64,000 nt of DNA from Acidobacteriota bacterium. GTDB lineage: Bacteria; Acidobacteriota; UBA6911; JACOSC01. Positions 9,235 to 31,290 of the stretch are shown piece by piece (the first letter of the stretch is position 1; every line of letters starts with the position of its first letter). The stretch covers positions 2,833 to 66,832 of the forward strand of contig JACOSC010000258.1 in NCBI GenBank assembly GCA_016179055.1, read 5' to 3'. The translations under genes and the position numbers were made by a program. The notes beneath the pieces are model-generated. The model saw nothing but the letters and a program-made list of their open reading frames with translations. It was not told where the DNA came from and made no database searches.

Positions 9235-12868
<3,634 letters not shown>

Positions 12869-12869
12869 A

Positions 12870-15437
12870 TCAACGCCCTTCCCTTGTTCGGATTTCAATG
12901 GCGGACGCTATGCGAGTCCGAATTTCCTCGTAGATCGGAATGTCAATGCCCTCTGCGACCTCCAGCGAGATCGCAAGGCCGTAAGGGATAGGTTGCTGAA
13001 TCTTTCCGGCGTCCTTTCGACAGTTGACCTTTATCGTTAGCGCGTCTCCATCGTTCAGCGGGACGGCGCTGTTTCCCTCGAACACTTCGTGTTGGACCGT
13101 TCCCCGCCGAACCGCGCGCCAGTCTGCATCTTGACGGGTCGGGGCCAAGCCAACTCCTTCGACCTCGAACCACAGACTTCCAGTTCGATAGCGTTGCGTG
13201 TTACCCGCTACGGGGGATAGCCACGCCAGCGTCACAATCAGCCTGCGCCAGTCCCGTCTCGCTCCGAGGGATGGCGGCAAAGGAAGTCTGAATAAATTAG
13301 CTTCTTCGTCACCGAGCTGGCCGAACCCGAGCACGGTCGCCCGCTGGCTCGTGCAATCTAACACACGTGCGCTGTCCGGTGCTCCGTACCCCAGCCATTG
13401 GGAAATCCAGTTTCTAATGTGGTGCCCGTTTTCGGGCGTCTGAAGTATTTCCTGAAGGCGTGTACCAATGGTTCCCCACGAACTTCCGTGGACGATTATC
13501 GCCTTTAGCAGCGGGGCAATGTACGAATTGACTTCGATGTCGGGTGCTTGCTCCTCGAAGACTTCGAGAAGAGAATCATGACAGATCGCAGCGGTCCTGC
13601 TGATAAGCGAGGCCGAATTGCTCGTGCCGCAAGCATACGCTACTTTGGTGAGGTCGCCAGTGACCGTGCCGGGAGCTGCCACCTTGTTGCCTGGAGCGAT
13701 GCGCAACAGGCGAGGTTCAAATCGCGCATCCTGTATCGTTCCTAACTGTTCCGCATAGAGGACTCGCCCGCCATTGAAAACGATGTCGGGCTTGATCGCC
13801 CGTCTATACCCGCTGCCGAATGACGAGATCGGGCTGGGTAAGCCGTTCACGAACAGGTCTACAGCGTGGCCGAGATGCGCGACCGTCGCACTGTCGTGAT
13901 GCAATGCGCCAACGGTAATCCCGTTGATGCTTTCCGCCGGTGAAAGCAACTTGCGGTGTCTCGCATCTCCGTAAAGCGTCCTGGCTTCCTTTTCATTTTT
14001 CGACAACGCGCTGAAGTCTCCCTTTGGCACACCTGTCTCGATGTTCCTGGTGTGATTACCGGCACTGATGACAAATAGCACCTTGTACTTGACGCTCAAC
14101 CAGTCAAGTAGCCGAGCCAACGGACTCATGGTCTGGGTGAACTGTCTGCACGGATCGCCGATGGAAAAGTTGATAATCCGGATACTGGGGGCAATGGCTC
14201 TCGTGGCGCCCTCCCCCTCGAACATGCGACGGACGGCTCGATGAATGTAGTCCACTACAAGAACATCGCTAGGTATCTGCTCCGGTCGAGGTGAACGAAT
14301 CCACGGGATCGGCTTCATGATTGGGCGGATGTAAACCGGACGAGAAAGAGGAGCTTCTCCGTCGCTGAGATCGCCGTGAACAACGAGCGAGGCCATTGCC
14401 GTACCGTGTATCCGGTCGGCAGCTGTGTATTCCGAGGCGTGGCCGTCCGGGTCGTCAATAATCAGACGGTTAGCGAGCAGCGCGTGGTTCTCCAAAGGGA
14501 GCCCGTCCAAAACTGCAACGACAGGCTGTCCCGTTGGCGCGGCCATCACGCCCGCCGTGTGGTCCGAAAGTTCGTCTTCAACAGACCTTTTTCCAGTGGC
14601 CATTTGTCCAACTGGCCGAAAGAACATGACGCTGTCGCACTTGACGAGGTCCACGTCCGGGTGGTCAATGATCTGTTGGGCGGCCCGGGCTGGCACTTCC
14701 GCGAGCAACGCTTGGTAGCTGATCTCCTCTACCATCGAGTTCCCCATGATCCGCCCGCCAAGTTGCCCGATGAGGTTGTTGAGCTGTCCCTCGGCCTCCC
14801 GCCGCTTTGCTTGCGAAGCACGGAACCACAGTTCAACCTCACAACGGATTGGCCGATTACCATCGCGCGCGAGGTCCTCCCGCCACGCATCGAGCAACCC
14901 GGTCTCCTCGATCCGATCATGGACGCCCCAGCGACGAATGTCCTTAATGGAGAGGAAAACGTCACGAAACTTGGTCAAACCGCGCTCAAACCTCATATTG
15001 GGATCGCTCTGATAACGCTGCCACAACGAAAGCATCTCGTCGAGCGCCCGCAGGTTTGTCATGACGAGGTAGAGCCGCCCACTCAGTGGCTTTTCTCGAT
15101 TAACCTCGTCGTAGAAGTCGGCGTCAGGCACGATCTCGTCGGTTTCGACTTCTCCCATCCATTCAAGCCCTTGGATGCGCTTTACGGCGTTGGCGAAGTT
15201 CTCGACGCCGTCAACGGTTTCGATCACCAGAACCTGTTCCGGATCAGCTCCTGCCGCTGTCTGTTGCAACTCGACGCGTCGCGCTCTGAATTCGCTCTGA
15301 AGCCGAGCAAAAACAGGCGATAGGCGCGCTCCTTGTCGTCCGCGAGACGGCTTGTGAATCCGGCGCGGCGACGGTGGAAGAGTTGTGCGCTCAGCCGTTT
15401 CAGGCGTTGGAAACAGCAATAACGGGCGGTCGGGCAT
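12870..15437 (-). CDS. S8 subtilisin-like serine peptidase, IetS-like
   Basis: 855 aa. The catalytic triad context is retained: VVAVLDGLP (Asp), [11 protein letters not shown] (His), [11 protein letters not shown] (Ser). Its start overlaps the upstream ATPase stop (TAATG at 15435-15439). Confidence 0.8.
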
Positions 15438-16444
15438 TATTCATCGCCTCCATTTTGCTGTTTCGTCTTGACGGACCGCGCAGGCCATGTGTTTAGCGTG
15501 CGCTCGACGATTTGTTTCATGTTCGACTCTGGCTGTCCGAGCACGTACTGCCGAAAGACGCTGGCCCCGAACTCTTCCGCTTCCGCGAAACTTGCGCCGA
15601 AAAGTTTTTTTGCCAGCGTCTCTGGCGTATAGTCAAGCGGAACCTTGACGCGTCGCTCAAACTTGGCGAACCACTCAGCCAGTCGCGCACGCGTAGGCTC
15701 GGGCAACGTCATGCGGACTTGGAATCGACGCCATACGGCCCGGTCGAGGAGCTCGGCATGGTTGGTCGCCCCGATAACGACGACATGGCTTGGAAGCGAG
15801 TCAATCTGCATTAACAGGGAACTAACGACCCGCTTTATCTCACCGGTTTCGTGCCGGTCGCCGCGCTCCTTGCCCAGGGTTTCAAACTCGTCGAAGAAAA
15901 GAACGCATTTTCTGGTGCTCGCATGCTCAAGCAAGCGCCGCAGCCGCACAGCCGTTTCTCCGAGATATGCCCCGACGACGCCTTCGTACCGCACGACAAG
16001 CAACGGAACCATGAGTGCGCGGGCGATAGCTTCCGCCAATGATGTCTTGCCGTTACCAGGAGGGCCGATCAGGAGAATCCGGTTACGTGGTTCGAGGTTA
16101 TACGACCTGAGCAGATCGGTCCTGTGGTGCTCCTGAACTAATTCGCGGGAAATTTCCACCACGTCCTTCGGCAACACCAAGTCTTCAAAGTCGCGTTCGG
16201 GCATCACCTCCTGAACAAGGTTTGTCACGCGCAGGTCCAGCGTGGCGCTTCCATTGGCCGTGGGTTTCTCCGCTGGGACCGACCGGAGTAGCTCTTCCAG
16301 AGCACCTGCGAGAACGGTGTGTTTTTTTGCCCTTTCCTCGGCGATGATCGCCTCGACGACCTTTCGGAACTTGGCCTTATCGCCAGTCATCCCGAGTCGG
16401 ACGAGGTCGGTTAGTAGATCCGCTCTAGCCATCGGTGCCTCCAT
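15437..16444 (-). CDS. AAA+ ATPase, IetA-like
   Basis: 335 aa. Walker A LLIGPPGNGKTSLAEAIA, Walker B VLFFDEFE, and a sensor/arginine region VIGATNHAELLDRAVWRRF. Confidence 0.8.
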   Translation of the reverse strand: MEAPMARADLLTDLVRLGMTGDKAKFRKVVEAIIAEERAKKHTVLAGALEELLRSVPAEKPTANGSATLDLRVTNLVQEVMPERDFEDLVLPKDVVEISRELVQEHHRTDLLRSYNLEPRNRILLIGPPGNGKTSLAEAIARALMVPLLVVRYEGVVGAYLGETAVRLRRLLEHASTRKCVLFFDEFETLGKERGDRHETGEIKRVVSSLLMQIDSLPSHVVVIGATNHAELLDRAVWRRFQVRMTLPEPTRARLAEWFAKFERRVKVPLDYTPETLAKKLFGASFAEAEEFGASVFRQYVLGQPESNMKQIVERTLNTWPARSVKTKQQNGGDE

Positions 16445-16450
16445 CCATCT

Positions 16451-17749
16451 TCATGCTTCGCCCTCCTTGCTCTGCACGATGGCAGGCACTTCGAGTTCGC
16501 CGCTCAGCAACTTTGGGAGAAGCGCGTCCCGCAGCTTCTCCAGCTTTTTTGACTGGAAGTCGTTTGCCCTCGTCTTGCGGAGTGCGGGCTGGACCATGTT
16601 TCCAAAGGCGGTTGCCACGCTTTCTGATGGAACGGTTACTTGGAACCGGTCGAAGCAAGTGGCCGGAACCCGCTGGCGGCCGGAGGTCCCGGTCATGTTT
16701 GCTATGGCGTGCTCGCGGAACCTGTCAGAGCGCGCTAGGAAGTACGTGAACTCGGGCGGCAGCGGCGGCCCGCTGCAAAACACGATGTACTCCGTGGACC
16801 CCCATCCGATTTCGTCCCTGTCGAGGAAATCCACGAAGGCGGTTTTCCCGTTTTCGAGGCAGGGCGTGATGCGTGCCACCAGAATATCGCCGTTGCGGAA
16901 CCTCGATCCCGAGCTGAATTCACGCCTTGGCCATCCTGCCGGACGGGATAGCTGCGTCGGCATGGCGCTCATTTCCACGTAGGGCGCTGCTGTTCCGCGA
17001 GAAAGACTGCGACTTGGGTTGACTTCGATTGCCTCGGGTAGAGACTTCACCGTCCATCCCTCCGGAATCTCGCCAAGCTCCGAGTCCTCAAACTCGTCCG
17101 GGAAGAGGTCGGCGATGGCCTGGGGCAGGCCGGGGTCGCGGCCTTCGGCCTTGGCGCGGACGGGGTCGAAGTCGATGAACCAGTTCTTGAAGAGCGCCGC
17201 CGCCATCTTCTCCAACGTCCGGTTCACCCGGCGGTTCAGCTCGATCTTGTCGTCCAGCATGCCGAGGACGTGGGCGATGCTCCGCTGTGTCGGAAGCGGC
17301 GGAATGGTGGCTTCGAATCCGGAGAGCGATTCGGCGGGGACACGCTGTCTGCCCGAGGTGCCCGTCATCTGAGCGACGGCGAACTGGTGGAACTCGGACC
17401 ACTTTGTCAGGTAGTAGGCGAAGTCGTTCTCCGTGACGTTCTCGCGGCCCCGGATAACGATAAACTCCGTTGATCCAAAACCCGGACTTGTCTTGTCAGT
17501 CGGTCGGAAGCGGGCGATTTTCCCGTTCTCAAGGCATGGGGTTATGCGCGCCATCAAGGTGTCGCCCGAATGGAAGCGCGCACCCCCGCCTGTGAACTCC
17601 CGGTGTTCCGACTCGCTAACACTCCGGGCTGTCGGATCGACAGCCGCCATCTCGACGAACGGGTAGACCTTGCCCTTCGTGAGTGGCACGGACGGATTGA
17701 CCGTTACCGCTTGTGTGAACGGATACATTGTCCAACCATTATTTCCCAT
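16451..17749 (-). CDS. hsdS: Type I restriction-modification specificity subunit (HsdS), two target-recognition domains
   Basis: 432 aa. It has duplicated conserved blocks (ITPCLENGK.., MTGTSGRQRVPA..) and a central and a distal coiled-coil spacer (LEKMAAALFKNWF; LEKLRDALLPKLLSGEL). Confidence 0.85.
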   Translation of the reverse strand: MGNNGWTMYPFTQAVTVNPSVPLTKGKVYPFVEMAAVDPTARSVSESEHREFTGGGARFHSGDTLMARITPCLENGKIARFRPTDKTSPGFGSTEFIVIRGRENVTENDFAYYLTKWSEFHQFAVAQMTGTSGRQRVPAESLSGFEATIPPLPTQRSIAHVLGMLDDKIELNRRVNRTLEKMAAALFKNWFIDFDPVRAKAEGRDPGLPQAIADLFPDEFEDSELGEIPEGWTVKSLPEAIEVNPSRSLSRGTAAPYVEMSAMPTQLSRPAGWPRREFSSGSRFRNGDILVARITPCLENGKTAFVDFLDRDEIGWGSTEYIVFCSGPPLPPEFTYFLARSDRFREHAIANMTGTSGRQRVPATCFDRFQVTVPSESVATAFGNMVQPALRKTRANDFQSKKLEKLRDALLPKLLSGELEVPAIVQSKEGEA

Positions 17750-18965
17750 CGCTCGCCCCCTTCCTGCCTTCGCGACGGCGACGCTTGCCGGGCGACTTCC
17801 TGGCTTGCGGTTTTTCGGGACCGGCGAGCTCCTTCTGAATCTGCTGGACCGTCGGCAGTTTGCCCTTGAGGTCGTCGGGCAGGCTTTCGACCAGCCTGGT
17901 CACGTAGCGGGCCACGCCGACGGGCTTGGCGAGGTCGCGCAGGGCGTACTCAGCAATGACCCGGCTGCGGGTCTTGCAGAGGATGATGCCAATGGACGGC
18001 TTGTCTTCGGGATGGCGCAGGAGATCGTCCACGGCCGAGAGGTAGAAGTTCATCTTGCCCGCGTGCTCGGGCTTAAAAGGCCGGGCCTTCAGGTCGATGA
18101 CGACGTAGCACCGCAGGCGCAGGTGGTAAAAGAGCAGGTCGAGGTAGAAGTCCTCGCCGCCCACGTCCAGATGCACCTGCCGGCCCACGAAGGCGAAGCC
18201 CGCGCCGAGTTCCAGCAGGAACTTGCGGATGTGATCCAGGAGCCCCCGTTCCAGGTCGCGTTCGGCCGCGTCGGCGCGCAACGTGAGAAAGTCGAAGTTG
18301 TAGGGGTCGCGGACGACCTCGGCGGCCAGGTCCGAGTGCGGTGCGGGCAGCGAGGCCTTGAAGTTGGTGATGGACCTGCCCTGTCGGGCGTGGAGATCGG
18401 ATTCGATCCAATGCGTGAGCATGGCGCGCGACCAGCCGTTGGCGACGGTCTGCCGGGCATACCAGAGGCGGGCGGAGGGGTCTTTCACCTTCTCCATGAG
18501 CCACACGTTGTGTCCCCACGGGATTTCTGCCACGGGTTGTGGCAGACTCCGGCCGTCCAATTCTCGCACAAGCTGTGCGAGTTTTGGCGGCTCCCCGCTT
18601 TCTCGCACAGCCCGTGCGAGAACTTCCTCCGTCCAGGCGAGATAGAAGGCCCGCATCCGCCAGATGTTGGCCTCTGAAAAGCCCGCAACGTCCGGGAACT
18701 CGCGCCGCAGGTCGGCCGATAATTGTTCCACGACGGCCTTGCCCCAACCCTCGGCGCGCTGACGCTTGACGATGGACCTGCCGATATGCCAGTACAGGGC
18801 GATGAGTTCGCGGTTGACGGACAGCGCCGCTTTGACCTGCGCCGCTCGGATGCGGGATTCCAGGTCTTCCAGCAGTTCGCCGTAGCCGACCGGAATCTCT
18901 CCGGCGTCTGTCGACTGCGTGATAGCTTTTCCCGTTCTTGATGGCTTCGCCTTGTTATTCGCCAT
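17739..18965 (-). CDS. DUF1016 / YhcG-family PDDEXK nuclease-domain protein
   Basis: 408 aa. N-terminal block LIALYWHIGRSIV..GWGKAVVEQLSADLRREFPDVAGFS..NIWRMRAFY is typical of the family. The C-terminal core is PD-(D/E)xK-like (DLLFYH..CYVVIDLK). Basic C-terminal tail. Confidence 0.7.
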   Translation of the reverse strand: MANNKAKPSRTGKAITQSTDAGEIPVGYGELLEDLESRIRAAQVKAALSVNRELIALYWHIGRSIVKRQRAEGWGKAVVEQLSADLRREFPDVAGFSEANIWRMRAFYLAWTEEVLARAVRESGEPPKLAQLVRELDGRSLPQPVAEIPWGHNVWLMEKVKDPSARLWYARQTVANGWSRAMLTHWIESDLHARQGRSITNFKASLPAPHSDLAAEVVRDPYNFDFLTLRADAAERDLERGLLDHIRKFLLELGAGFAFVGRQVHLDVGGEDFYLDLLFYHLRLRCYVVIDLKARPFKPEHAGKMNFYLSAVDDLLRHPEDKPSIGIILCKTRSRVIAEYALRDLAKPVGVARYVTRLVESLPDDLKGKLPTVQQIQKELAGPEKPQARKSPGKRRRREGRKGASDGK

Positions 18966-19016
18966 AGCCCAGCGCCTCCAGAAAGAAGTTTGAAGGGTGA
19001 AGAGTGAAGGGTGAAA

Positions 19017-19373
19017 TCATGATCTCTTGGCCTTGAGTTTCTTGACGATGCTTGTCAGTATGGCGATTATTTCATTGCACTCGTTTATCAGGTCTTGAAG
19101 CTGGTTTTTGGAGACGAGATCTCCGGCATCCAAGAGCCGAAGCCAATAATGGGTTTCTCGCGCTTCCTTGCAAGCAATGCTGTATTTCGATAGAAAATCA
19201 GCCTCGCTTTGCGAAGCCTGACCTTCTTCAATATTTGCTCCGATGGATGTTCCTGACCGCAATAGTTGATGCGCCAGCGTGCGACCCGTTCCTAGCTTAT
19301 CGTCCAGAACAGCGCACAGCGTCACAATACGCTTTGCAAAAGAAAAAGTTCTTTCCGGCAAATCAGATTTCAT
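19017..19373 (-). CDS. Four-helix-bundle protein (23S rRNA intervening-sequence protein family)
   Basis: Internal ATG at 19373 gives MKSDLPERTFSFAKRIVTLC.. then SIGANIEEGQASQS..DFLSKYSIACKEARETHYWLRLL. The 5' part of ORF 19017-19610 is a shadow frame of the hsdM remnant. Confidence 0.75.
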   Translation of the reverse strand: MKSDLPERTFSFAKRIVTLCAVLDDKLGTGRTLAHQLLRSGTSIGANIEEGQASQSEADFLSKYSIACKEARETHYWLRLLDAGDLVSKNQLQDLINECNEIIAILTSIVKKLKAKRS

Positions 19374-19389
19374 TTCACCATTCTCACTT

Positions 19390-19593
19390 CTAACTTCCCC
19401 CTTCATCAAAGCCAAGTCTTGAAAAATTGGCTTTGATGGTTGCGTCCAGCTCCGTCGCCTCGGCCATCTTCTCCTCGAAGGGGACGTGCTTGTACTCGGC
19501 GGCGTCCATGTTGCCGCGCAGCTTGTCGGCGGCCGCCCACAACTTGTCCTCGAAGCCAAGGTTGGCGCCCGTGTTTTTTTTCTGCTTGGCCAT
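19390..19593 (-). pseudogene. hsdM: hsdM remnant: the N-terminal ~37 aa of a type I methyltransferase fused in frame to its last ~30 aa
   Basis: [37 protein letters not shown] is the canonical HsdM N-terminus. It runs straight into [30 protein letters not shown], which looks like the C-terminal coiled-coil tail. The whole catalytic domain is missing. Confidence 0.7.
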
Positions 19594-19754
19594 TTATCTA
19601 TCCAGTCCACGTGGCGGTTCGCATGGAGCCGCTTCAGTTCGTCTCTTCTCCCGGCTTATAAGTGCCGCCATCTCGGATCCGCCTTTATTCGCCTAACGCG
19701 GGATCGGGCCGTTTACCGTCAATGACCAACCAGTTTCGCCGTATGGCACATAGA

Positions 19755-19780
19755 CCCGGTCGCTACCACTCCCGGTTCTG
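19755..19780. repeat. REP family R1, right arm only (CCCGGTCGCTACCACTCCCGGTTCTG)
   Basis: It matches the right arms at 765-790 and 57531-57556, including the preceding ATGGCACATAGA. The left arm is degenerate. It sits at the upstream border of the R-M island. Confidence 0.6.
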
Positions 19781-19809
19781 TATCCGTGCAGACCCCCGGA
19801 ACAGTTGCC

Positions 19810-20418
19810 TTAATTCTTATCACTCGTTACCTTTTTCAAGGCGTCTTCAACGAGTAGGTTGTTGACTAACAGGCATCGATATTCAATGATAATTGCGAGA
19901 AGATTGATCGCTACGGCGATGTACCCCAGCCACCCGTGCACCGATGCCAATAGACCGCGGGAGGTCGCGGCACCGCCACCCAGTATGGTTGCGGCCATAG
20001 TGCCTAATATGGCAGCGGTGATGTGCGGAGAAGCTTTGGACTTGCAAGAACGCATCTGACTTAAAATGGCCGGATCTAATTTATGACGGGCGGACCAATC
20101 CTTAATTTGTTTAGTCATCCCGATAAAATAAAAGAAAGTCATGCTGTGCGAGAAAATGGATAAGAAGGCGGCCGGGATTGCCATGTTAAAATGATTGCGA
20201 AAATTACTGTGCGTGACGGCATGCAGATGGCCAAAGTAGGCGGCTGCACAGAGCCCAACCCATGACAGTACGTTAGCTATGAGAAGTCCTAGAGCCATAA
20301 ATTCCCGCGAGGCGCACGCCTCATACCTACAGTGGCTCAGGCTTACCGTCTGAGGGCCTTCGGCGAGATCGCTCTCGGTAACGGAAACTCTCAGACGTAA
20401 TGCTTGTGCCACTGCCAA
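19810..20418 (-). CDS. Hypothetical integral membrane protein (about 4 TM segments)
   Basis: ORF 202 aa. The more likely start is ATG 20298 (MALGLLIANVLSWVGLCAAAYF). No recognisable family. Confidence 0.45.
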   Translation of the reverse strand: MAVAQALRLRVSVTESDLAEGPQTVSLSHCRYEACASREFMALGLLIANVLSWVGLCAAAYFGHLHAVTHSNFRNHFNMAIPAAFLSIFSHSMTFFYFIGMTKQIKDWSARHKLDPAILSQMRSCKSKASPHITAAILGTMAATILGGGAATSRGLLASVHGWLGYIAVAINLLAIIIEYRCLLVNNLLVEDALKKVTSDKN

Positions 20419-20696
20419 GGGCCGACACTCCGCCTTTACCTAAAACCGGCGAAATTCGTGGACCCCATAAATTAACTAGATCTGCAACAAGTCTTAACTT
20501 ACCAGACCACTTTTTTCTGCTTTAGCATTCAACCAAGGTCAACGCGACAGGCGCGAAGTCCCTCGAACGACGCCTTACGCTAGCGGTAGTGAAAGAGGCA
20601 CTCCGCCTTGAACGCTGCGGATAAGGTGCGGCGTGCGAGCGCCGCCGCCTCCTGCCATGCGTGAGCGTGCCGCACGCCGACACCTTACTGCGCTTG

Positions 20697-21287
20697 TTAG
20701 GTGGCGGTCCCATTTCCCACCGTGAATAGCGCTGTTGGCGCTGCCCGCCCCAGCGCTTCGTATAGAAAGTGATCGACAAGCGAGCGCGTTGCACGGCAGC
20801 CTGCCGCGAGCGGAGCAGGCTGCAGCCTCTCGCTGCCTATCGTCAGATGCGCCCCGCCCTTGTGGCCAGCACGAATAGTCTGAACAAGACCGTTGATCGC
20901 GGTGACGTCGTCCGACAAGTGGGCCAAGACCCGCTCGACGGTGAGAAGGTCCAGACCAAAGTGCCGAAGGGTGAGAGTAGTGCACCGTTGATGGCGGTAT
21001 TCCGCGAGCTGATCCTGCGTCGGGTTCAGGCCGACTCCCAAACTCTCCAGCATGGCACGGCACGACATGAAACCGTGTTCCACCACAGCATTGCTGAAAA
21101 CCGTCACAGTTGGAGCCTGAATCACCATCATGGGGTGGGAAACCGTAATCGTCGTGACATGTGCATTGCCATGGTGCTCAAGAAACAGGGACACGTGGTA
21201 ACAGAGATCGATCGCGGTTAGCTTATAGGGAATGTGCTCATTCAGAAACTTTTCCTGCAGTTCAGGTGTCATGATGCTCACCGCCAC
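20697..21287 (-). CDS. Hypothetical protein, no family recognised
   Basis: 196-aa ORF co-directional with and directly upstream of the membrane protein. Alternative start at 21272 (MTPELQEKF). Its C-terminal third overlaps GC-rich shadow ORFs. Confidence 0.4.
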   Translation of the reverse strand: MAVSIMTPELQEKFLNEHIPYKLTAIDLCYHVSLFLEHHGNAHVTTITVSHPMMVIQAPTVTVFSNAVVEHGFMSCRAMLESLGVGLNPTQDQLAEYRHQRCTTLTLRHFGLDLLTVERVLAHLSDDVTAINGLVQTIRAGHKGGAHLTIGSERLQPAPLAAGCRATRSLVDHFLYEALGRAAPTALFTVGNGTAT

Positions 21288-21363
21288 CTAACGACCAAGC
21301 TCACCTGCCGCTATGGAGCGTAGCGGAATAGCAGTCAGGTGCCGCGCCTTGTTAGGCATTAAT

Positions 21364-21654
21364 TTAGATTCTGTGCTTCCAGTATTCTGGATCTCTATGT
21401 AAATGCATAATAGCCACAATGTATATTCCTTCTTTTTCTTCTGAATATAGGATTCCATATGGAAACCTCCGAACTAACGATCGCCGAATGTCCTCCTCAA
21501 TAACAGGCCAAGCTTTTGGAAAAGATACCGTTCTTTCGATAGTTAAATACACTTCAACAGCGAAGTCGTATCCCAATCCCGATTCCTTTTCCTCATAATA
21601 CTCAATTGCCTCAATGAACTCGACTTCCGCTTCGGGATGAAACAAGTAGTTCAT
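21364..21654 (-). CDS. Type II toxin, RelE/ParE superfamily
   Basis: 96 aa. MNYLFHPEAEVEFIEAIEYYEEKESGLGYDF...RFPYGILY...IYIVAIMHLHRDPEYWKHR is a typical ParE-like plasmid-stabilisation toxin. It overlaps the antitoxin stop by 4 nt. Confidence 0.8.
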   Translation of the reverse strand: MNYLFHPEAEVEFIEAIEYYEEKESGLGYDFAVEVYLTIERTVSFPKAWPVIEEDIRRSLVRRFPYGILYSEEKEGIYIVAIMHLHRDPEYWKHRI

Positions 21655-21875
21655 TTTGAGAACCTATTCCATATTCTTTTAAATACTTCTTCACCTGGCA
21701 CTGCTTCTACCTTCCCAGAACGAATTTCCTCCAATCGTCGCTTAGCTACTGCTGCCCATTTTTTATCTATTTCCAATTCTGGTGGATTCAGACTTTTCAA
21801 TAATAAATCAACAACCATTGCTCTTTCTTCAACAGGCAATGAGATTACTTCTGCTATGATATCTTTTGTCTTCAT
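21651..21875 (-). CDS. Putative addiction-module antitoxin component (TIGR02574-like)
   Basis: 74 aa. ..IIAEVISLPVEERAMVVDLLLKSL..IDKKWAAVAKRRLEEIRSGKVEAVPGEEVF. It is translationally coupled to the toxin. Confidence 0.75.
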   Translation of the reverse strand: MKTKDIIAEVISLPVEERAMVVDLLLKSLNPPELEIDKKWAAVAKRRLEEIRSGKVEAVPGEEVFKRIWNRFSK

Positions 21876-21943
21876 ATCACATTTACCTCTATGTATTTTA
21901 TGCCTAACATATGATTAGCCCACGGCTAACCGAGCTATACGCC

Positions 21944-22168
21944 TCATGTCCCTCCAAATCCGATTTGGACCTTGCCGTGATCAACAATGACGGGAACTCT
22001 ACGATCGCCACCGCTGTATTTAAGCATTCGATCAAGACTGGCCGTATCAGCCAGGACATTAATATAATCAAACGCAACCCCTTTTTGCTCGCAGTCCGCA
22101 CGGGCTGCCGACGTATAGGGTCAGGTATCTTTCCCAAAAATAAGCGTCATTCTCTTATCCCTGCTCAT
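21944..22168 (-). CDS. Glutaredoxin-like small redox protein with in-frame UGA (candidate selenocysteine) at the first active-site position: U-P-Y-T
   Basis: Not in the ORF track. My translation is MSRDKRMTLIFGKDT-[TGA 22121-22123]-PYTSAARADCEQKGVAFDYINVLADTASLDRMLKYSGGDRRVPVIVDHGKVQIGFGGT*. AGGAGG lies at 22173-22178. The pattern matches Grx/NrdH-type proteins (..IY.K..CPYC......L...G..F..........SG...VP.I...G..IGG). Confidence 0.6.
22087..22112 (-). promoter_or_regulatory. SECIS-like stem-loop immediately downstream of the in-frame UGA
   Basis: RNA GUCGGCAG C CC GUGC GG A CUGC GAGC. Counting from the U of UGA as 1, pairs are G16-C33, C17-G32, A18-U31, G19-C30, a C20/A29 mismatch, C21-G28 and C22-G27, with apical loop G23 U24 G25 C26. 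Confidence 0.5.
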
Positions 22169-22186
22169 AGAGCCTCCTATGTTTTA

Positions 22187-23425
22187 TTAGAAGACCATGC
22201 TGGCGAAGGTGACCACCGAGCCGTCATCGCAGCGCTGACCGTACTTGAGCACACGTCCGCGCTCGGCCTCCAGTACGCTCAGCATGGCATAAATGGGCGG
22301 GTAACCGCAAATGCGCCGGCGGTCTTTGTCTTTTTCGATATGCTGATGAAACCCCGCGGCGTCTACCCGTTCGATGGTCTGCAGCAACTCATGGTCTTCC
22401 TTATGGATTTCTTGTAAGACGGGTGAATCGGCCGGGAATGGATCGCCAAAGCGGGGACCCATGTGGGCCAGGTCAGCGCTGGCGAGGCAAAAAACCTTTT
22501 GGCCGGCACGTGCGGCGCCGTTGATCGCGGTTTTCAAGGCATCTCGGAAGGCGCAATATTCACGATCCCGACTCGGCGGGACTCCGTTATAAACATGTCC
22601 GTGCAATGAGCCGCACAAAATGGGTACTGCACGTATCTTGCGCTTTTCCCCAAAAAGGAATTGTAAAAATACGGATTGAAACTCAATTGAATGCTCGGAG
22701 CGATGTTCAAACTCGTCCTTAAACAGGTCCAACGAGCCGCGATAGGATTGCAAGAGCGCCTCGAGGAAGGGTTGGTCCGTCTCTAACGGCCCTAGCGGGG
22801 TTTCGTAGTTTTTTCGGGTGAGAGCGAAAGGGCTACGCATCGGCCCGTGCGCGGTGCCAAAGATTAGGAAGAGGTCCGCCGCGCAGCGCTCGGCCAGTTC
22901 CTTATAGGCCCATGCGTAACACCAGCCGCCGCGTGGGAAATCAATGTGCGGGAGGATGGCGCCGCGGACTTCGTTGTCGGGGTGTATGGGGCCGATCGGC
23001 CCAGGACCGTCCTTATGTATAAAATATTGCGAGAGCGTTTCACGAAGGGAGAGTGGCTCCGCCGGATAAACCTTGCCGGCATGCCAAGCCGTGCGTGTGC
23101 CGGCCTGACGGAACTCGATCTCTAATTGTCGTCGGAATTCGTCAAATCGTTCGTTCTCCAGCAGGTGATTCTCATCCAATTGCCGTGTGATTCCTTCGAT
23201 CTCGTGGTCAAAAATTATGTCCCCGAATTGCTTGGCGAACTTGGCCTGTATGTCGCCAGTAGAGTGCAGGCCATCCAGCAGCGTGATCACAAAAAAGACC
23301 GGCAGAGGGACCGCCAGCATTTTATCACCCAGGGCGATGGGGTCTCGTAGATACACATAACGCTCTCCGGAAACCTCCACGGGAAAGGCATCAATGAGTC
23401 GCACTTTAGTGTATGTTTCCGACAA
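22187..23425 (-). CDS. Memo-family protein (AmmeMemoRadiSam system protein B-like) with ~100-aa N-terminal extension
   Basis: 412 aa, TTG start 7 nt after AAGGAG. Memo core motifs AGKVYPAEP, GAILPHIDFPRGG, LIFGTAHGP and ADLAHMGPRFGD. The N-terminal 100 aa form an extra small domain. Confidence 0.7.
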   Translation of the reverse strand: MSETYTKVRLIDAFPVEVSGERYVYLRDPIALGDKMLAVPLPVFFVITLLDGLHSTGDIQAKFAKQFGDIIFDHEIEGITRQLDENHLLENERFDEFRRQLEIEFRQAGTRTAWHAGKVYPAEPLSLRETLSQYFIHKDGPGPIGPIHPDNEVRGAILPHIDFPRGGWCYAWAYKELAERCAADLFLIFGTAHGPMRSPFALTRKNYETPLGPLETDQPFLEALLQSYRGSLDLFKDEFEHRSEHSIEFQSVFLQFLFGEKRKIRAVPILCGSLHGHVYNGVPPSRDREYCAFRDALKTAINGAARAGQKVFCLASADLAHMGPRFGDPFPADSPVLQEIHKEDHELLQTIERVDAAGFHQHIEKDKDRRRICGYPPIYAMLSVLEAERGRVLKYGQRCDDGSVVTFASMVF

Positions 23426-24139: not shown

Positions 24140-24437
24140 CTCCTTAGAAACTTCGTAACCATTCACGGGTGGTGGATACCCCCGGCGGAAGCCGGGGGAG
24201 CTTCAAGATCCAGCCTACATCACGCGCCCCTCACCCCCTTGGCCCCCTCTCCCCGCCCGGCGGGGAGAGGGGGGTTGGGGGAGTGGGGCGTCGCCGGAGT
24301 AGGCTGGGCCTGAGTCTCCCCCAGCTTCCGCTGGGGGTCTCTTGTGTGCTCTCAGTGAACCCCGCGAACCGTTACGAAACTTCCCTAGTTTCATCTTGGT
24401 ATCTGCTTGCCGTCTTCGCAAGCTGGGGGACTCTTTT
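24140..24437. repeat. ~295-bp hairpin-rich repeat, family R4, copy 1
   Basis: Near-identical by eye to 30998-31290 in the same orientation. It contains hairpins CCCCCGGC-GGAA-GCCGGGGG, CTCTCCCCGCC..GGCGGGGAGAG and CCCCCAGC-TTCC-GCTGGGGG. ORFs 24169-24510 and 24215-24451 are artefacts of it. Confidence 0.8.
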
Positions 24438-24489: not shown

Positions 24490-24523
24490 GAGCAATTAGC
24501 TTTTAGCTAATTGCTCTTTTTTT
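24490..24523 (+). terminator. Canonical intrinsic-terminator hairpin (12-bp perfect stem, 3-nt loop, T7 tail) overlapping the CHAT gene stop codon
   Basis: GAGCAATTAGCT-TTT-AGCTAATTGCTC followed by TTTTTTT on the plus strand. On the minus strand the same hairpin follows the CHAT1 stop region with a weaker U-rich tail, so it may act bidirectionally. Confidence 0.6.
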
Positions 24524-27500
24524 GCTTTCTTATGCAGGAACAAGAAGCCGGAAAGCGCCGCAAGAAAAATGGAGGCCAGCATGGCCCAGTACAGTTTATC
24601 GATCCGAAAATGAGAATCGTCCAGTGAAATAGGGTCTGCATTGCCAATTAAAATAAAGGGCGCCCAGAAGAATGGATCATCATACTTTCCACGAGCGATG
24701 AGCTCGAGCTTCGCTTTTCGCAAAGCCTCTCGCTTCGGTGCGCCCTCCGCCATATGCTTATAAAACCGTGTCATCAAGTCGACCGTCGCAGGGCTATCAG
24801 CAATCGGCCAGAGCGTAGCGACGACCGAATCGACACCGGCTGACAAGAACGCCCGGCTCATCGTATCGAGGGCCTCTCCGCGCCGGAGGTGACCCGAGGC
24901 CGTGTCGCAGGCCGATAGGATCACCAAATCCGCGTGCAAATCAAGCGACAGGGTCTCGTAAAGGTACAAGTATCCGTCCTCGCCCTTTTGGTCCGCGGTT
25001 GGGTTCAAGGTAAAGGCGATACGCGAGTATAACGGATTCTGGTCATCGAGGATATTGTGTGTGGCCAAGTGGATCACTTTCGACTTGCTCGCCAACTGTT
25101 TGAACGTATGCTCGGTAGCTTCGCCTTTCAAGAAGAGGAGGCCTCCCGGAACGAGCCGGCGGATATTTCGGACCTCAGCTTCGCTGTACGGCAGCGAAGC
25201 GAGATGCTCAACCCGCGATGCACCCACGGCGTCTTGACTCCTTGTTCCGGCCAGAGTGAAATCCGGGTTCCCCATAGCCAGGAGCGGGATCTGCCGCGTG
25301 GATTCTGAATGGCCACGCTTTGGACCAAGGAGGCTCGCCGCGTAGGAATAAGATATGGGATAGCGCTTGAGGAGGTAGCATGGCTTGTAATTGTCAAAGC
25401 CGGTGACCAACATCTCGAAGGGAACATAGCTCAAGAGCCCATCCGGCACGATGATGAGGCGTGTTCCGGCGGCGACAAATTTTTCCAACGGCTGAAAGAC
25501 CGCTTTATATAACGTCTGGAGCTCATTAAGATGAAACCCTGCGCCCACGGGATCTTTTACGCGTTGGCGGTTATTGGTGAAGAGCGTGCTCGTCTCCTCG
25601 ACTAGCGTCTTCAATTGTTTTTCAGCTACGGGGATCTCTTCGATTCTGAAAAACTTCTTGCCCACTATAAACGCGATAATCTTGCGGTCAGTGACCAAGT
25701 ATTCCAACAATGTCTCGGTCTCATTGAGCTGGCTTTGGATTTGGGAAGGATTTAAAATGGCAGGGTCGTAGAAGAAAGAAAATCCCGGGTGTTGTTTTTT
25801 CATTTCCGCCAGGAGCGCGGCCTTCCGGTTATCCAGGCGCCGGACATCAAGTTCCAAATCCGCGATCTGTCGGTTGGTCTTCTCGGCAAGAGTCAGGTCA
25901 TACCGTGCCACTTGAGATTTGCGTTCCGTATTCATTGCGATGAGCTGTTGGTGTATGGCATGTAAGGCATCCTGTGTTTCGTCCATACGTCTTTTTAACG
26001 AATCGTCCAAGTGCACCTTATCCGTGAGATGTCCCCGGCGCATCAGATCAAGAATATTGGAGGCCTTGGCTTTTTCGGCGTAATAAAAAGCCAGCTCCGC
26101 GTAATCCTCGCGGTGCGTCTTCCGATGAAGCGTAAGCAGCAGCTCCACCAGGGTGTGGTAAGCCTTCATGTTCGTTTCGGAGAATCCCGTCCGTTCTTTC
26201 GGCGTGAGCCGCTTACGCACGGCTTCGATCAGCTCGACGGCGTTTCGGTAGTATTGATAAGCGAGTTCGTCGTCGCCCTTCTGTTGACTTAGATCGCCGA
26301 GGCCTTCATAGGCTTCCCATTGGAGATCCTCATAGCCGAGTGAACGACCCATCGTAAGAGCCGCCTGGTAAGATTGTTCTGCCTGGGTAAATTTCTGCAA
26401 ACGTAAGGAAGCATCTCCGATCCCCTTGAGGCACAATCCTTCAAACTGCGGACGCTTACGGGCCCGCGCTAATCGGAGGGCGATATCAAAGGTGTCGAGC
26501 GCCTTTTTGTAGAGTCCCATTTTCATGTAGGTCTTGGCGATGTTCCAGTAAACAACATTTAAGTTTAGACTCGCCTCATCCTTTTGGGACAGTGCGAGCG
26601 CTTGGTTATAAAATTCGAGCGCCGCCTGGTAATCCTCTTTGAAGAGGAAAGCATCTCCGAGAGAGCCCAAAATGGCTTCTCTTGCACGAGAGGGCGAACG
26701 AACGAGTCGCAAGGCTTGCTTATACAAATCGATCGCTTTATCATATTCGCCGATTAGAGCCGCCATTTCGCCGAGGCCTCGATACGTATTGGAGGCGCCG
26801 ACATCGTCGTGGATCTCCTTAAAAAGATCGAGTGCCTTCAGGAATTGATCGGCGGCTTTCGAGTAGTCGTTTAGTTTTTGCCAAGCGAGTTCACCGGCTT
26901 TAAGCGCCGTCCAAGCTTGTCGCTCCTTGTCGTTGGCGGCAAGGCTCAGGCGTTCGGCGCTTTGAAAGTACTTCGCTGCCTCCGCAGTTTTATCCAGGCG
27001 ACTGGAGAAGACGGCCTTGAGATAAAAGGCAAACCCTTGCAGTTGCGGGTCGCCCAGTGCTTCTGATAAATGCAGCGATCTTTCAAGATACTGAAACGCG
27101 GAGCGAAAATCTCCCAAGAGGCCATGACCACGACCCACATAGGTGTAGGCCTCCGCCATGAGTTCATGATTCCCGGTTTTCTCGGCCAAATCTTCAGCCT
27201 GTTTTGACGTCGAAAGATAGTCACGTAATTTATGAAGATCCCAAAGAATAGCGGCCTTCAATAAGTGCGCCAAGGGATCCTTGGGATTTATCTTGATCGT
27301 CTTGTCGGCATATTCGAGCGCCTGTTGGAAGTCCAAATTCAGCCGATAGGCCGTGGCAAGGCCAAAATAGATAGGGTACGGATGCGGAGATGATTTCTCG
27401 AGACGATGCAGCCGTTTGAGGGCAGGATTTAAATCCCCTTTGGCTCGGAAGACATGCGCCAGAAAAACGTATGGCTTTTGAGAACGCGGGTAGCTCTGGA

Positions 27501-27870
27501 GTGCTCTAAACAGATACTGGGCCGCCTCGTCGTAGTCCTTTTTATGATGGTGACAAAGGGCAAGACCATAAAGCAGGCCGGGATGATTGGGCCGGCGGGA
27601 AAGCTCTGCTTTAAGGAATGTGATGCTGTCTTCGAGAATTCCCTTTTTGCCGCTTGCTCGGGCCAGCAGTTCGTAGACCTCAATGAACTGAGGTTCCTTA
27701 ACGACCGTCTCTCGAGCAACCCGTATGACCTTGTCGTAATCCTCTGAGTTTAGCGTTTGAAGGGTTTGTAATTCCAGCCGATCCGACCGATGCGATGTTG
27801 GGGGCGTTGCGCGAACGAAGCTTGATTCCATCCCTAAGAGGAGTATGATGAAGAGGCTTGCTAATCGCAT
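24496..27870 (-). CDS. Exported TPR-repeat CHAT-domain (caspase-like) protease with C-terminal membrane anchor
   Basis: ORF 24496-27906. The preferred ATG at 27870 gives the signal peptide MRLASLFIILLLGMESSFVRA. About 700 aa of TPR repeats follow. CHAT His context is VIHLATHNILDD and Cys context is DLVILSACDTASG. C-terminal TM segment LYWAMLASIFLAALSGFLFL, then KKAKKE. Confidence 0.8.
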   Translation of the reverse strand: MRLASLFIILLLGMESSFVRATPPTSHRSDRLELQTLQTLNSEDYDKVIRVARETVVKEPQFIEVYELLARASGKKGILEDSITFLKAELSRRPNHPGLLYGLALCHHHKKDYDEAAQYLFRALQSYPRSQKPYVFLAHVFRAKGDLNPALKRLHRLEKSSPHPYPIYFGLATAYRLNLDFQQALEYADKTIKINPKDPLAHLLKAAILWDLHKLRDYLSTSKQAEDLAEKTGNHELMAEAYTYVGRGHGLLGDFRSAFQYLERSLHLSEALGDPQLQGFAFYLKAVFSSRLDKTAEAAKYFQSAERLSLAANDKERQAWTALKAGELAWQKLNDYSKAADQFLKALDLFKEIHDDVGASNTYRGLGEMAALIGEYDKAIDLYKQALRLVRSPSRAREAILGSLGDAFLFKEDYQAALEFYNQALALSQKDEASLNLNVVYWNIAKTYMKMGLYKKALDTFDIALRLARARKRPQFEGLCLKGIGDASLRLQKFTQAEQSYQAALTMGRSLGYEDLQWEAYEGLGDLSQQKGDDELAYQYYRNAVELIEAVRKRLTPKERTGFSETNMKAYHTLVELLLTLHRKTHREDYAELAFYYAEKAKASNILDLMRRGHLTDKVHLDDSLKRRMDETQDALHAIHQQLIAMNTERKSQVARYDLTLAEKTNRQIADLELDVRRLDNRKAALLAEMKKQHPGFSFFYDPAILNPSQIQSQLNETETLLEYLVTDRKIIAFIVGKKFFRIEEIPVAEKQLKTLVEETSTLFTNNRQRVKDPVGAGFHLNELQTLYKAVFQPLEKFVAAGTRLIIVPDGLLSYVPFEMLVTGFDNYKPCYLLKRYPISYSYAASLLGPKRGHSESTRQIPLLAMGNPDFTLAGTRSQDAVGASRVEHLASLPYSEAEVRNIRRLVPGGLLFLKGEATEHTFKQLASKSKVIHLATHNILDDQNPLYSRIAFTLNPTADQKGEDGYLYLYETLSLDLHADLVILSACDTASGHLRRGEALDTMSRAFLSAGVDSVVATLWPIADSPATVDLMTRFYKHMAEGAPKREALRKAKLELIARGKYDDPFFWAPFILIGNADPISLDDSHFRIDKLYWAMLASIFLAALSGFLFLHKKAKKEQLAKS

Positions 27871-27987
27871 AACGCACAGGTCGCAAGATCCGAGAATCGC
27901 CGGCAAAAGAATCAGGAAAGACCAGCCGTGGCATCGTCGGTGGATCGCCGGCCTTTAAGAAATAAATTTGTATTCATCGAAGATAAC

Positions 27988-29403
27988 CTAGATGTTTCCC
28001 TCCATAGCGCCAGGATCGTGTATCGTAAAAATTTCGTATGAGCGGGTTTGGCTATTCCAATTCAACACCACTCCCGTCGTGTCGAAGCTTCTCGTAAGAC
28101 TCGAGCAGGGATTTGGGTTTGGATTTACTACGCCCCCATCAACGATGGCGAAGTCAACGGGGTCGAAATTAGCCGGAGCTTCGACCAGTGTACTACCGGG
28201 TTGGGCATTCGTACCGACAACGGTCTCGTAGGCTGTTTCAAACGGGCATCTAGCGTGCAACGGTGTCATGGATGCGGGCGGAAGCGTGCGAACGATCCGT
28301 CCTCTATGGATAAAGTAAATAAGTCCGTTCCCATCAGAACTGATGCCGGTAGGATGTGAGTCTGAGCCGTCTGGAAGATAGAAATGCGACCGCTGCGGCG
28401 CCGGAAGCCTCACCGGGTCAATAAGAACTTCATGAATACCTCCTCTCCCGGCCGTGTAGAGAGCCCATTGCTCGCCATAGGACCACCGCGGATAGAAGAC
28501 ACCGTGAATTGACGCCGCCGGAGGCAAATTTGTTGCGACAATGTTGGCCGAGCCCTCTTGGATATTCTTGATCACAGAATCGCCAAGGCTACCCTCGTCG
28601 AGGACGAAAGTCTCTCCTCCCACGGAGGCAACACTAAGCGGCCGGCGAAGTAGGCTATTCCGGCATTCTCCCCCGACGAGAGTCTCTACCGGGTAGCCAT
28701 TCGTAGCTGAAACAACAGGCGCGCTTGCGGGACCCACATACGCGACTTTGACCGCGCAATTTCCTGTATCGGCAATGATCAGAGTGTTATTGTTCGGGTT
28801 GAAAGCCAGCCCGGCAGGCCGATTTAATTGGGCGGTCTCTCCTAGAGCACGCGTCTGCGTCACGCTGAGCAGGGAAATGCTCGCTACGTGATAGGGCTGA
28901 TAGTTCATTTCGAGTCGAACCTGGGCCTTGATCTCATCAACGGCGTTGGCGAATGGTAGTGTGACAAAGACTCTGAGCGAGAGGCACACAATTTGGTCCG
29001 CTTCGGTTGCAGCCGCAGGAGGCGAGATTTGGCCCCTCGCGACGGTCCTCACCGAACCTGCGCACTGAGTACATCGGCCCAGACAATCTGCCTCTTTTCC
29101 TTCGCAGTAATTTCGACAGGCGGACGAGTAATCAAGCTGATCAAGTTCCAAATCACTTGAATCACCGCCTCCTCTATCGTTGGCGCCGAACGATGCGGCG
29201 ACATCCTCGGCGGTAAGCCTGATGAGTTCGAGACTCCGATCTACAGCTATCCCTCCCACATCCTGAGATTGAAACGACGCAATCGGGATCACAACCAGAT
29301 GTCCCCTGTCCCCTGGCAAACGGGTCAGAGTGCCTTCCGCGAATACAGTGACAGCGGCAGCCCACAGCGCAGCCAAAGCAATGGCTAAGCCGATCTTTGT
29401 CAT
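27988..29403 (-). CDS. Secreted protein with N-terminal Cx3C-x6-Cx3C module and a probable beta-propeller body
   Basis: 471 aa. Signal peptide MTKIGLAIALAALWAAAVTVFAEG. Cys cluster CRNYCEGKEADCLGRCTQC at nt 29062-29118. The remainder is beta-rich. No family assigned. Confidence 0.55.
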   Translation of the reverse strand: MTKIGLAIALAALWAAAVTVFAEGTLTRLPGDRGHLVVIPIASFQSQDVGGIAVDRSLELIRLTAEDVAASFGANDRGGGDSSDLELDQLDYSSACRNYCEGKEADCLGRCTQCAGSVRTVARGQISPPAAATEADQIVCLSLRVFVTLPFANAVDEIKAQVRLEMNYQPYHVASISLLSVTQTRALGETAQLNRPAGLAFNPNNNTLIIADTGNCAVKVAYVGPASAPVVSATNGYPVETLVGGECRNSLLRRPLSVASVGGETFVLDEGSLGDSVIKNIQEGSANIVATNLPPAASIHGVFYPRWSYGEQWALYTAGRGGIHEVLIDPVRLPAPQRSHFYLPDGSDSHPTGISSDGNGLIYFIHRGRIVRTLPPASMTPLHARCPFETAYETVVGTNAQPGSTLVEAPANFDPVDFAIVDGGVVNPNPNPCSSLTRSFDTTGVVLNWNSQTRSYEIFTIHDPGAMEGNI

Positions 29404-29497
29404 ATTCGCCTCCTAAATACAATTTGCCTTACCCTACATGTAGAGCATATCGGCCGGCCGATTGGAAAACTTTAGTCGTTTTTTTACTGCGGTCAAA

Positions 29498-30196: not shown

Positions 30197-30208
30197 AGTA
30201 GCCTCCCT

Positions 30209-30868: not shown

Positions 30869-30997
30869 GTAACTACTCAGTCGGCGCTCCTTAGCCCCGT
30901 AGGGGCGGCATGTTTATAGCAGAAGCCATTGAATAGGAGTCAAGCTCCATAGGAGCGACACGTACAGAGCCTTTATTAGCTAAGCCTGCACATGTCG

Positions 30998-31290
30998 CTC
31001 CTTAGAAACTTCGTATCCGTTCACGGGTGGTGGATACCCCCGGCGGAAGCCGGGGGAGCTTCAAGATCCAGCCTACATCACGAGCCCCTCACCCACCTGG
31101 CCCCCTCTCCCCGCCCGGCGGGGAGAGGGGGGTTGGGGGAGTGGGGTGTCGCCGGAGTAGGCTGGGCCTGAGTCTCCCCCAGCTTCCGCTGGGGGTCTCT
31201 TGTGTGCTCTCAGTGAGCCCAGCGAACAATTATGAAACTTTCTTAGTTTCATCTTTGTATCTGCTTGCCGTCTTCGCAAGCTGGGGGACT
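30998..31290. repeat. ~295-bp repeat family R4, copy 2 (direct orientation relative to copy 1)
   Basis: It aligns end to end with 24140-24437. It is nested between inverted modules CCCCGTAGGGGCGGCATGTTTATAGCA (about 30896-30925) and its complement (about 31322-31349). ORFs 31027-31356 and 31073-31279 are artefacts. Confidence 0.8.

Follow-up and report, generated by a model that had tools for sequence, protein, structure and literature searches.

The window analysed here, a 64,000-nucleotide stretch of contig JACOSC010000258.1 from an Acidobacteriota bacterium, carries on its minus strand, directly downstream of a gene for a Memo-family protein, a small open reading frame (ORF) in which a TGA takes the position of the active-site cysteine of glutaredoxins. 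This ORF is real and intact, a double-selenoprotein gene from UXX-star selenoprotein family 1, which had been catalogued before; the find holds up but is an ordinary one. The best explanation as a whole, which we regard as very probable, is that both UGA codons of the gene are read as selenocysteine (Sec), each by means of its own selenocysteine insertion sequence (SECIS) element, and that the two residues, Sec16 and Sec75, may form a redox pair.

A family 1 UXX-star gene with two in-frame UGA codons

The gene starts with an ATG at 22168-22166 and translates in the window as MSRDKRMTLIFGKDT-stop-PYTSAAR...GFGGT-stop (in full MSRDKRMTLIFGKDT-stop-PYTSAARADCEQKGVAFDYINVLADTASLDRMLKYSGGDRRVPVIVDHGKVQIGFGGT-stop), the internal stop being the TGA of codon 16. 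After ...GFGGT, the codons read TGA GGC GTA TAG (21946-21935), that is U-G-V-stop. The original prediction had described the ORF together with an AGGAGG ribosome-binding site and an 18-nt gap to the TAA of the Memo gene (22189-22187), all of which can be read directly from the DNA, but its length of 74 codons is too short, as the coding sequence runs on through the second TGA to a TAG and comprises 77 codons (coordinates in Table 1). Likewise, the TGA of codon 16 is not the only interruption of the frame, as had been stated, since the second in-frame TGA is the codon of Sec75. TGA had also been taken for an ordinary stop, both in the neighbouring genes and in this ORF. This is right for the neighbours, as 12 of the 46 long ORFs of the window end with TGA, and a global code change is accordingly not the explanation, but it is wrong for the UXX-star ORF itself, whose presumed stop is a Sec codon.

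With U written as cysteine, the protein matches the NCBIfam equivalog model NF041114 ('UXX-star selenoprotein family 1') at 113.6 bits, with a cutoff of 72 (E=3.6e-33), and the match spans positions 2-70 of the 70-position profile. If the last three residues are left off, 104.5 bits are reached, and it is the addition of C-G-V that brings it to this value and covers the full profile. Further matches are to the parent subfamily model NF041212 ('Uxx-star family glutaredoxin-like (seleno)protein') and to the Pfam model Glutaredoxin PF00462 (40.3 bits versus 22.9), and the closest solved relative by sequence is E. coli Grx3 (PDB 3GRX/1FOV; E=1e-5, residues 10-63); the predicted fold is of the glutaredoxin/thioredoxin type. 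In the table of a 2026 review, UXX-star family 1 is listed with the motif UxxT and two Sec residues (PMC13188914), and the review credits the family, there termed 'Distant Grx-like protein 1', to Zhang & Gladyshev 2008, and UXX-star family 2 and the HUGP/GUXX-star fusion to Haft & Tolstoy 2025, who named the UXX-star families. The gene is thus not the novelty that the original prediction had implied, being a full-length member of NF041114 and of a two-Sec family already listed in the literature (PMC13188914). An experimental characterisation of family 1 was not found in the literature, and the protein collection contained no exact match to the X-substituted protein.

With the other members of family 1, the window protein shares the UxxT active site, the two Sec residues, the C-terminal U-x-x-stop, the length of about 70-77 amino acids and the end-to-end match to the hidden Markov model (HMM). 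No family-defining feature sets it apart, and the traits of its own are an N-terminal extension of six residues (MSRDKR), Cys26, and the site downstream of a long-form Memo gene. UXX-star families 2 and 3 and the HUGP/GUXX-star fusion (NF041211, NF047338, NF045501) have the small Grx-like fold and the Sec three residues from the C-terminus in common with it, and it matches these models at 52-57 bits, but this is far under their cutoffs of 97-325 bits. The review table gives only one Sec for family 2 (GxGU) and an extra N-terminal HUGP domain for the fusion protein, and in both respects they differ from the window protein (PMC13188914). Two other assignments were considered and rejected. A classical dithiol glutaredoxin would not have Thr at the fourth motif position or end two residues past Sec75, and the Grx3-type models TIGR02181 and NF007923 stay below cutoff, with 36 bits versus 90 and 34.5 versus 129. 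The NrdH/YruB-type models TIGR02194 and TIGR02196 reach 22.5 bits versus 85.75 and 39 versus 88.55, and the motif has no second cysteine.

The first UGA is found in the motif T-U-P-Y-T (codons 15-19), and, as had been proposed, it stands exactly where homologues carry the active-site cysteine of CPYT. A DNA pattern scan for FGKDxUPYT with TGA at the U position, restricted to one genome per species, found at least 119 loci in other genomes, where only about one chance match is expected by our information-content estimate. In these loci, which belong mostly to Acidobacteriota, Desulfobacterota/'Deltaproteobacteria' and NC10, the frame is open and the protein is conserved downstream of the TGA. 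A metagenome scan with TGY at codon 16 yielded 120 further loci, 115 of them complete, and cysteine is found in this column in these 115 loci and in 18 database proteins, so that the Cys/Sec pair that an alignment of homologues had been expected to reveal is present. The core of the original prediction, a glutaredoxin-fold selenoprotein gene in which Sec replaces the attacking cysteine, is thus well supported by the NF041114 match, the TGA in at least 119 genomes and the Cys/Sec pair.

The second UGA is even more strictly conserved. Complete 3' ends are available for 114 Sec-form sequences (113 genomic loci and the window), and in all of them the codon after ...GG[TS] is TGA, followed by exactly two sense codons and a stop, which is TGA in 67, TAG in 29 and TAA in 18 cases; the tail is U-G-V in most. 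The same ending, TGA-NNN-NNN-stop, is present in 115 of 115 complete Cys-form loci. As it is common to Sec-forms and Cys-forms, the C-terminal Sec is universal in the family, with either Sec or Cys at the active-site position, and it is this invariance that defines the corrected coding sequence of 77 amino acids with Sec16 and Sec75. The name 'UXX-star' itself explains the second Sec codon that had been overlooked. All 18 database homologues (P0001-P0018; several named 'glutaredoxin' or 'glutaredoxin 3') end with GGT or GGS, and none has Cys75. At the locus that encodes P0001 (L243), a TGA comes next, with two codons and a stop behind it, and as the Cys-form loci all go on in the same way at the point where the database proteins end, the latter are most likely selenoproteins that gene callers have cut three residues (U-G-V) short, so that the Cys16 form of the family seems to be systematically misannotated.

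The shorter gene model of 74 residues, with Sec16 as the only Sec and termination at the second TGA, would fit with the genuine stop function of TGA in 12 of the other long ORFs and with the gene callers that end the Cys-form homologues at this codon. It is nevertheless very improbable, as this codon is TGA in 229 of 229 loci, each with exactly two sense codons and a second stop behind it, when a stop at that exact codon is expected in about 5% of cases per locus, and as about 90% of the loci have a hairpin with a GG or GU loop some 23 nt downstream, without U-tracts. Furthermore, the curated HMM takes in the three extra residues and the score rises with them, and the literature gives two Sec for the family.

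SECIS elements of the two UGA codons

The SECIS element of the second UGA (SECIS 2) is much stronger than that of the first. In the window, it has an 8-bp stem, the loop presents G24/U25 as counted from the U of the second UGA, and the fold has a z-score of -2.0. For the comparison of loci, a hairpin was counted if it had at least 5 contiguous bp, a loop start 20-27 nt from the U of UGA, and a G in the first two loop bases. Such hairpins are found in 91% of the Sec-form loci and in 88% of the Cys-form loci, in contrast to about 12.5% of shuffled sequences. The loop starts with GG (106) or GU (85) in 191 of these 194 hairpins, and there are 90 distinct 6-nt stem arms among them, which means that the structure is conserved and the sequence is not. 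An alignment of 113 3' untranslated regions (3' UTRs) with MAFFT gave no consensus structure in RNAalifold, because hairpins of unequal stem length fell out of register, which is why hairpin statistics per sequence were used in comparison to shuffles instead. In contrast to the E. coli fdhF SECIS, SECIS 2 lies wholly in the 3' UTR, as the second UGA is only two codons away from the stop.

A stable, G+C-containing stem directly past the coding end could also be a mere intrinsic transcription terminator of the Memo-Grx operon. This can hardly be expected, since a U-tract follows only 7 of the 194 hairpins, and none follows the stem in the window, which shows that these hairpins are not terminators. 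In addition, a terminator would explain neither the GG/GU loop start in nearly all of the hairpins nor the narrow range of the loop position, mostly 20-25 nt from the UGA, and co-oriented genes continue downstream in relatives. The second UGA would thus be read as Sec via a strong 8-bp 3' UTR hairpin that presents G24/U25.

The first UGA has its SECIS element (SECIS 1) within the coding region. It reads GCAG-C-CC[GUGC]GG-A-CUGC and covers nt 16-33 from the U of the first UGA, with G23 and U24 in the loop by hand count; sequence and positions are as originally described. G23 and U24 have been reported as the SelB contact positions of the E. coli SECIS, with 11-nt spacing (PMC8659212), so that the proposed equivalence to fdhF is borne out. 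Like the E. coli fdhF SECIS, it is a hairpin that begins about 11-15 nt downstream of the UGA, with G23 and U24 in the apical loop (PMC8659212), but its stem is made up of an upper part of 2 bp and a lower part of 4 bp, separated by a 1x1 internal loop where fdhF has the bulged U17. The Rfam search gave no match at the UXX-star locus.

The geometry of SECIS 1 is backed by comparative data. With a tolerant hairpin criterion, a hairpin follows the first UGA in 37.5% of the Sec-forms and in 11.8% of the Cys-forms (Fisher p=1.6e-5). Codon +7 (nt 22-24) is CGT in 98 and CGG in 16 of 114 Sec-form ORFs, and never CGC or CGA, whereas CGT makes up only 30 of 380 other CGN codons (8%) in the same ORFs (p=1.7e-58). 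At codon +6, the Sec-forms have GCC or GCT (GCY) without exception, in comparison to 49% elsewhere (p=1e-30). Nucleotide 24 is therefore U or G and nucleotide 21 is C or U in all Sec-forms, the window itself having GCC CGT, while Cys-forms favour CGC and GCG at codons +7 and +6 (p=5e-21). This bias at synonymous sites, which is present in Sec-forms and absent in Cys-forms, indicates RNA-level selection for G23 and U/G24 that is limited to genes with UGA as codon 16. The first UGA would accordingly depend on a weak hairpin in the coding region that presents G23/U24.

Some observations have to be set against the decoding of both codons. The fold energy of SECIS 1 in the single sequence is not significant alone (z=-0.21 for 71 nt, -1.7 for 45 nt), and the 37.5% of Sec-form loci given above is a low share for even a tolerant criterion. 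The weakness of this hairpin is explained by the fact that the same stretch must also encode A-A-R-E/A-D, and as the fold in the window is not significant, the support for SECIS 1 rests on the comparison of Sec-forms with Cys-forms and on the codon controls within the same ORFs. Furthermore, a tRNA search of the 64-kb window found no tRNA and hence no tRNA-Sec, selA, selB and selD are not among the about 45 ORFs scanned in the window, and a second selenoprotein gene was not detected there. The intactness of the gene nevertheless suggests that Sec is inserted in this organism. A nonsense pseudogene, that is the decayed remnant of a glutaredoxin gene in which TGC or TGT for Cys mutated to TGA, would require only a one-base change and would agree with the lack of Sec machinery among the window ORFs scanned, but it can practically be dismissed, as at least 119 genomes from several phyla have an open frame and a highly conserved sequence past the TGA, the window itself has the synonymous codons that are specific to the SECIS (GCC CGT), the ribosome-binding site is intact and further disabling mutations are absent, and the identical sequence was obtained from contigs of three independent read sets (SRR12113389, SRR12113411, SRR12113413).

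Possible functions of the two Sec residues

In the motif U-P-Y-T, Sec16 would take the place of the attacking cysteine (CysA) of glutaredoxins, and there is no resolving cysteine (CysB), because the fourth motif position is Thr. Sec75 is positioned just past the I-G-F-G-G-T loop (conserved I-G-x-G-G), next to the 'CysC' position of the IGGCD motif. Many class II glutaredoxins have this CysC, as do E. coli Grx3 and human Grx1, and in yeast Grx5 and Chlamydomonas Grx3 (CrGrx3), which have no CysB, a CysA-CysC recycling disulfide is possible that is reduced by a reductase and not by glutathione (PMC3866529). As Sec75 is next to the CysC position, and as CysC can serve recycling without CysB, it is proposed by analogy that Sec16 and Sec75 may form an intramolecular diselenide, which would be a Cys16-Sec75 selenenylsulfide in the Cys-forms. 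The two residues would be oxidised and reduced in turn, as a two-electron couple carried by a minimal Grx fold without the glutathione-binding C-terminal helices, and in this lineage the couple would plausibly be recharged by the CoADR-like flavoprotein of an ancestral gene cluster (see below). This redox-pair mechanism is put forward tentatively, with a little less than even confidence. Diselenide bonds are very rare in natural proteins.

The comparison with known systems shows which elements such a mechanism would use. With E. coli Grx3 and the class I/II glutaredoxins, the window protein has in common the CysA position in C-P-Y-x, the V-P cis-Pro motif and the G-G loop, but in comparison to Grx3 it has Thr for CysB, and a Sec instead of a Cys that is located one residue further from the G-G (GGT-U versus GG-C). 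It also ends two residues after Sec75 and therefore is without the C-terminal helices and the CDD residues that bind glutathione. In mammalian thioredoxin reductase, the tail G-C-U-G-stop is comparable to the UXX-star tail in that Sec is among the last few residues of a flexible tail, which carries electrons into or out of a buried redox center, but that enzyme has an unrelated flavoprotein fold and a eukaryotic 3' UTR SECIS, and the partner of its Sec is an adjacent Cys and not a distant active-site residue. The selenoprotein glutaredoxin of clostridia (Kim et al. 2011) likewise has Sec at the attacking position of a Grx fold, but it has a resolving Cys (UxxC), a single Sec and no C-terminal Sec tail (PMC13188914).

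There are points that speak against the redox pair. In poplar GrxS12, the CysC sulfur is 9.6 A away from the CysA adduct and no CysA-CysC disulfide is formed (PMC3866529), neighbour analyses of UXX-star loci found no gene neighbour that is conserved family-wide, and the review proposes metal binding as an alternative role (PMC13188914). With the same gene and the same decoding, the two selenols would then be soft metal or metalloid ligands (Hg, As, Cu, or in selenium/sulfur trafficking). From general chemistry, two selenolates, one on a flexible tail and one in an active-site loop, would be expected to chelate with high affinity, and the CcdA-like neighbour weakly matches the arsenical efflux permease model ArsG (54.8 bits versus a cutoff of 200). 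However, metal-resistance genes (mer, ars, cop) do not turn up repeatedly as neighbours among 240 loci, the local ancestral cluster encodes thiol-redox proteins (CoADR-like flavoprotein, CcdA, ResA-like redoxin), and fold and CysA position are of the oxidoreductase type, which makes metal binding unlikely, if still a serious alternative. The probability that remains after these two proposals falls to a function that is neither that of a redox pair nor that of metal or metalloid binding.

With such a redox pair, the double selenoprotein of this acidobacterial lineage might act in the cytoplasm as the center of a dedicated electron relay based on selenium. Electrons would pass from NAD(P)H via the flavoprotein to the Sec16-Sec75 diselenide, and from the reduced selenoprotein to CcdA and a periplasmic redoxin, or to a Memo-family redox enzyme. 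Such a relay is speculative and rather improbable.

Genomic context

The protein encoded upstream is MBI1748243.1/MBI3655787.1 of an Acidobacteria bacterium metagenome-assembled genome, and it matches the Memo/AmmeMemoRadiSam protein B model at 111 bits versus a cutoff of 26. It is a long form of about 408-412 amino acids with an N-terminal extension of about 110 residues beyond the 267-270 positions of the Memo models. A search with it gave 1661 matches at E<=1e-20; of the 120 that were listed, nearly all have long-form length (Acidobacteria, Desulfobacterota, Nitrospinota and others). AMMECR1 or an adjacent radical SAM gene was not found in the subset of window ORFs that was scanned, and the selenoprotein is not expected to be one of the AmmeMemoRadiSam partners.

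The original prediction implied a link to Memo, and the adjacency is indeed found in the window and in three close relatives (L244/L245 and L248, with Memo identities of 66% and 61%), where a Sec-form UXX-star gene lies uncalled directly downstream. At the loci of Memo relatives with 52% and 49% identity, a UXX-star gene was not found, and as tblastn gave no Memo match in the 240 other UXX-star loci, Memo was rejected as a general functional partner. At L244, Memo and UXX-star are followed, in this order, by orf162, by a CoADR-like pyridine-nucleotide disulfide oxidoreductase, by CcdA (DsbD_TM) and by a redoxin of the AhpC/TSA or ResA type. This gene set is also present in the window at 60-75% identity, but there the redox cluster is broken up by two insertions (within 9235-21875), whereas the relatives keep it contiguous (Table 1). 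The CoADR-like, CcdA, ResA-like and orf202 proteins were likewise rejected as general partners, with 0-1 matches in 240 UXX-star loci; they are lineage-specific. ORF-based clustering of neighbours (228 loci) was dominated by spurious antisense ORFs of high-GC DNA, and the largest plausible recurring neighbour families are each found in at most about 31 of the 228 loci and in single clades only. By their representative sequences, recurring neighbours resemble an ATP-binding cassette (ABC) transporter ATPase, peptide deformylase, HPr and PtsI.

Table 1. Positions in the window of the UXX-star gene, its elements, and the surrounding genes and insertions
Feature	Position	Strand	Basis or remark
Long-form Memo/AmmeMemoRadiSam protein B gene, 412 aa, upstream, co-oriented	22187..23425	-	profile match; protein look-up
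Shine-Dalgarno AGGAGG, with 4 nt between it and the ATG at 22168	22173..22178	-	direct reading
Corrected coding sequence, UXX-star family 1 selenoprotein, 77 aa + stop, MSRDKRMTLIFGKDT-U-PYTSAAR...GFGGT-U-GV-stop	21935..22168	-	sequence; NF041114 profile; invariant TGA-XX-stop in 229 loci
First UGA, Sec16, active-site U-P-Y-T, CysA position of glutaredoxins	22121..22123	-	sequence; Cys (CPYT) in homologues; TGA in at least 119 genomes
SECIS 1, within the coding region	22091..22108	-	fold; synonymous-site statistics; hairpin enrichment in Sec-forms
Second UGA, Sec75, C-terminal tail G-G-T-U-G-V-stop ('UXX-star')	21944..21946	-	229 loci; HMM score gain
True stop TAG	21935..21937	-	direct reading; comparative loci
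SECIS 2, 3' UTR, GGUUAGCC-GUG-GGCUAAUC	21913..21931	-	fold; hairpin and loop conservation in loci
Insertion 1, toxin-antitoxin pair and 196-aa ORF of no assigned family	20697-21875
orf162	20418-19810		window counterpart of L244 cluster gene
Insertion 2, island of about 10.6 kb	9235-19610		type I restriction-modification genes and others
DUF1016/YhcG nuclease	17739-18965		island
HsdS	16451-17749		island
IteA-like AAA ATPase	15437-16444		island, adjoins subtilase
Subtilase	12870-15437		island
HsdR	10703-12898		island
T1RH-like	9235-10857		island
23S rRNA-IVP protein	within 9235-19610		island
CoADR-like flavoprotein	9174-7774		window counterpart of L244 cluster gene
CcdA	7530-6805		window counterpart of L244 cluster gene
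ResA-like redoxin	6694-6143		window counterpart of L244 cluster gene

Elsewhere in the window, a direct repeat of 294 nt (24140-24433 and 30998-31291, 95% identical) flanks the block 24496-30760, which encodes a CHAT-TPR protein, a 471-aa ORF of no assigned family, a TPR protein and a sigma-70-like protein. The second repeat copy is located between inverted arms of 66 nt (30890-30955 and 31292-31357, 79% complementary). Two large proteins with TPR and caspase-like CHAT domains, of 1136 aa (24496-27906, minus strand) and 821 aa (38332-40797, minus strand), are encoded less than 14 kb apart. There are two full-length matches to the small RNA Acido-Lenti-1, at 1979-2024 (minus strand) and 2120-2165 (plus strand), which are divergent, about 95 nt apart, and score 52.8 bits each versus a gathering score of 37; this pair is consistent with the acidobacterial origin of the window. 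A 275-aa ORF (43575-44402, minus strand), which may be a prophage or tailocin remnant, has a Peptidase_S74 domain; this domain serves as an intramolecular chaperone in endosialidase and phage tail fibres.

For the family, the consequence is in the first place a corrected annotation, as gene callers either miss the Sec-form altogether or clip the Cys-form by three residues, and the right product is that of the model with 77 amino acids and two Sec. The current understanding of selenoproteins is unchanged by this, and the value lies in that correction and in the comparative statistics on SECIS elements and Cys/Sec usage. Leads for a characterisation of the family are the universal C-terminal Sec with its Sec/Cys alternation at the active site, the codon footprint of SECIS 1 (GCY-CGU/G at nt 19-24), and the position of Sec75 adjoining the 'CysC' position of glutaredoxins.

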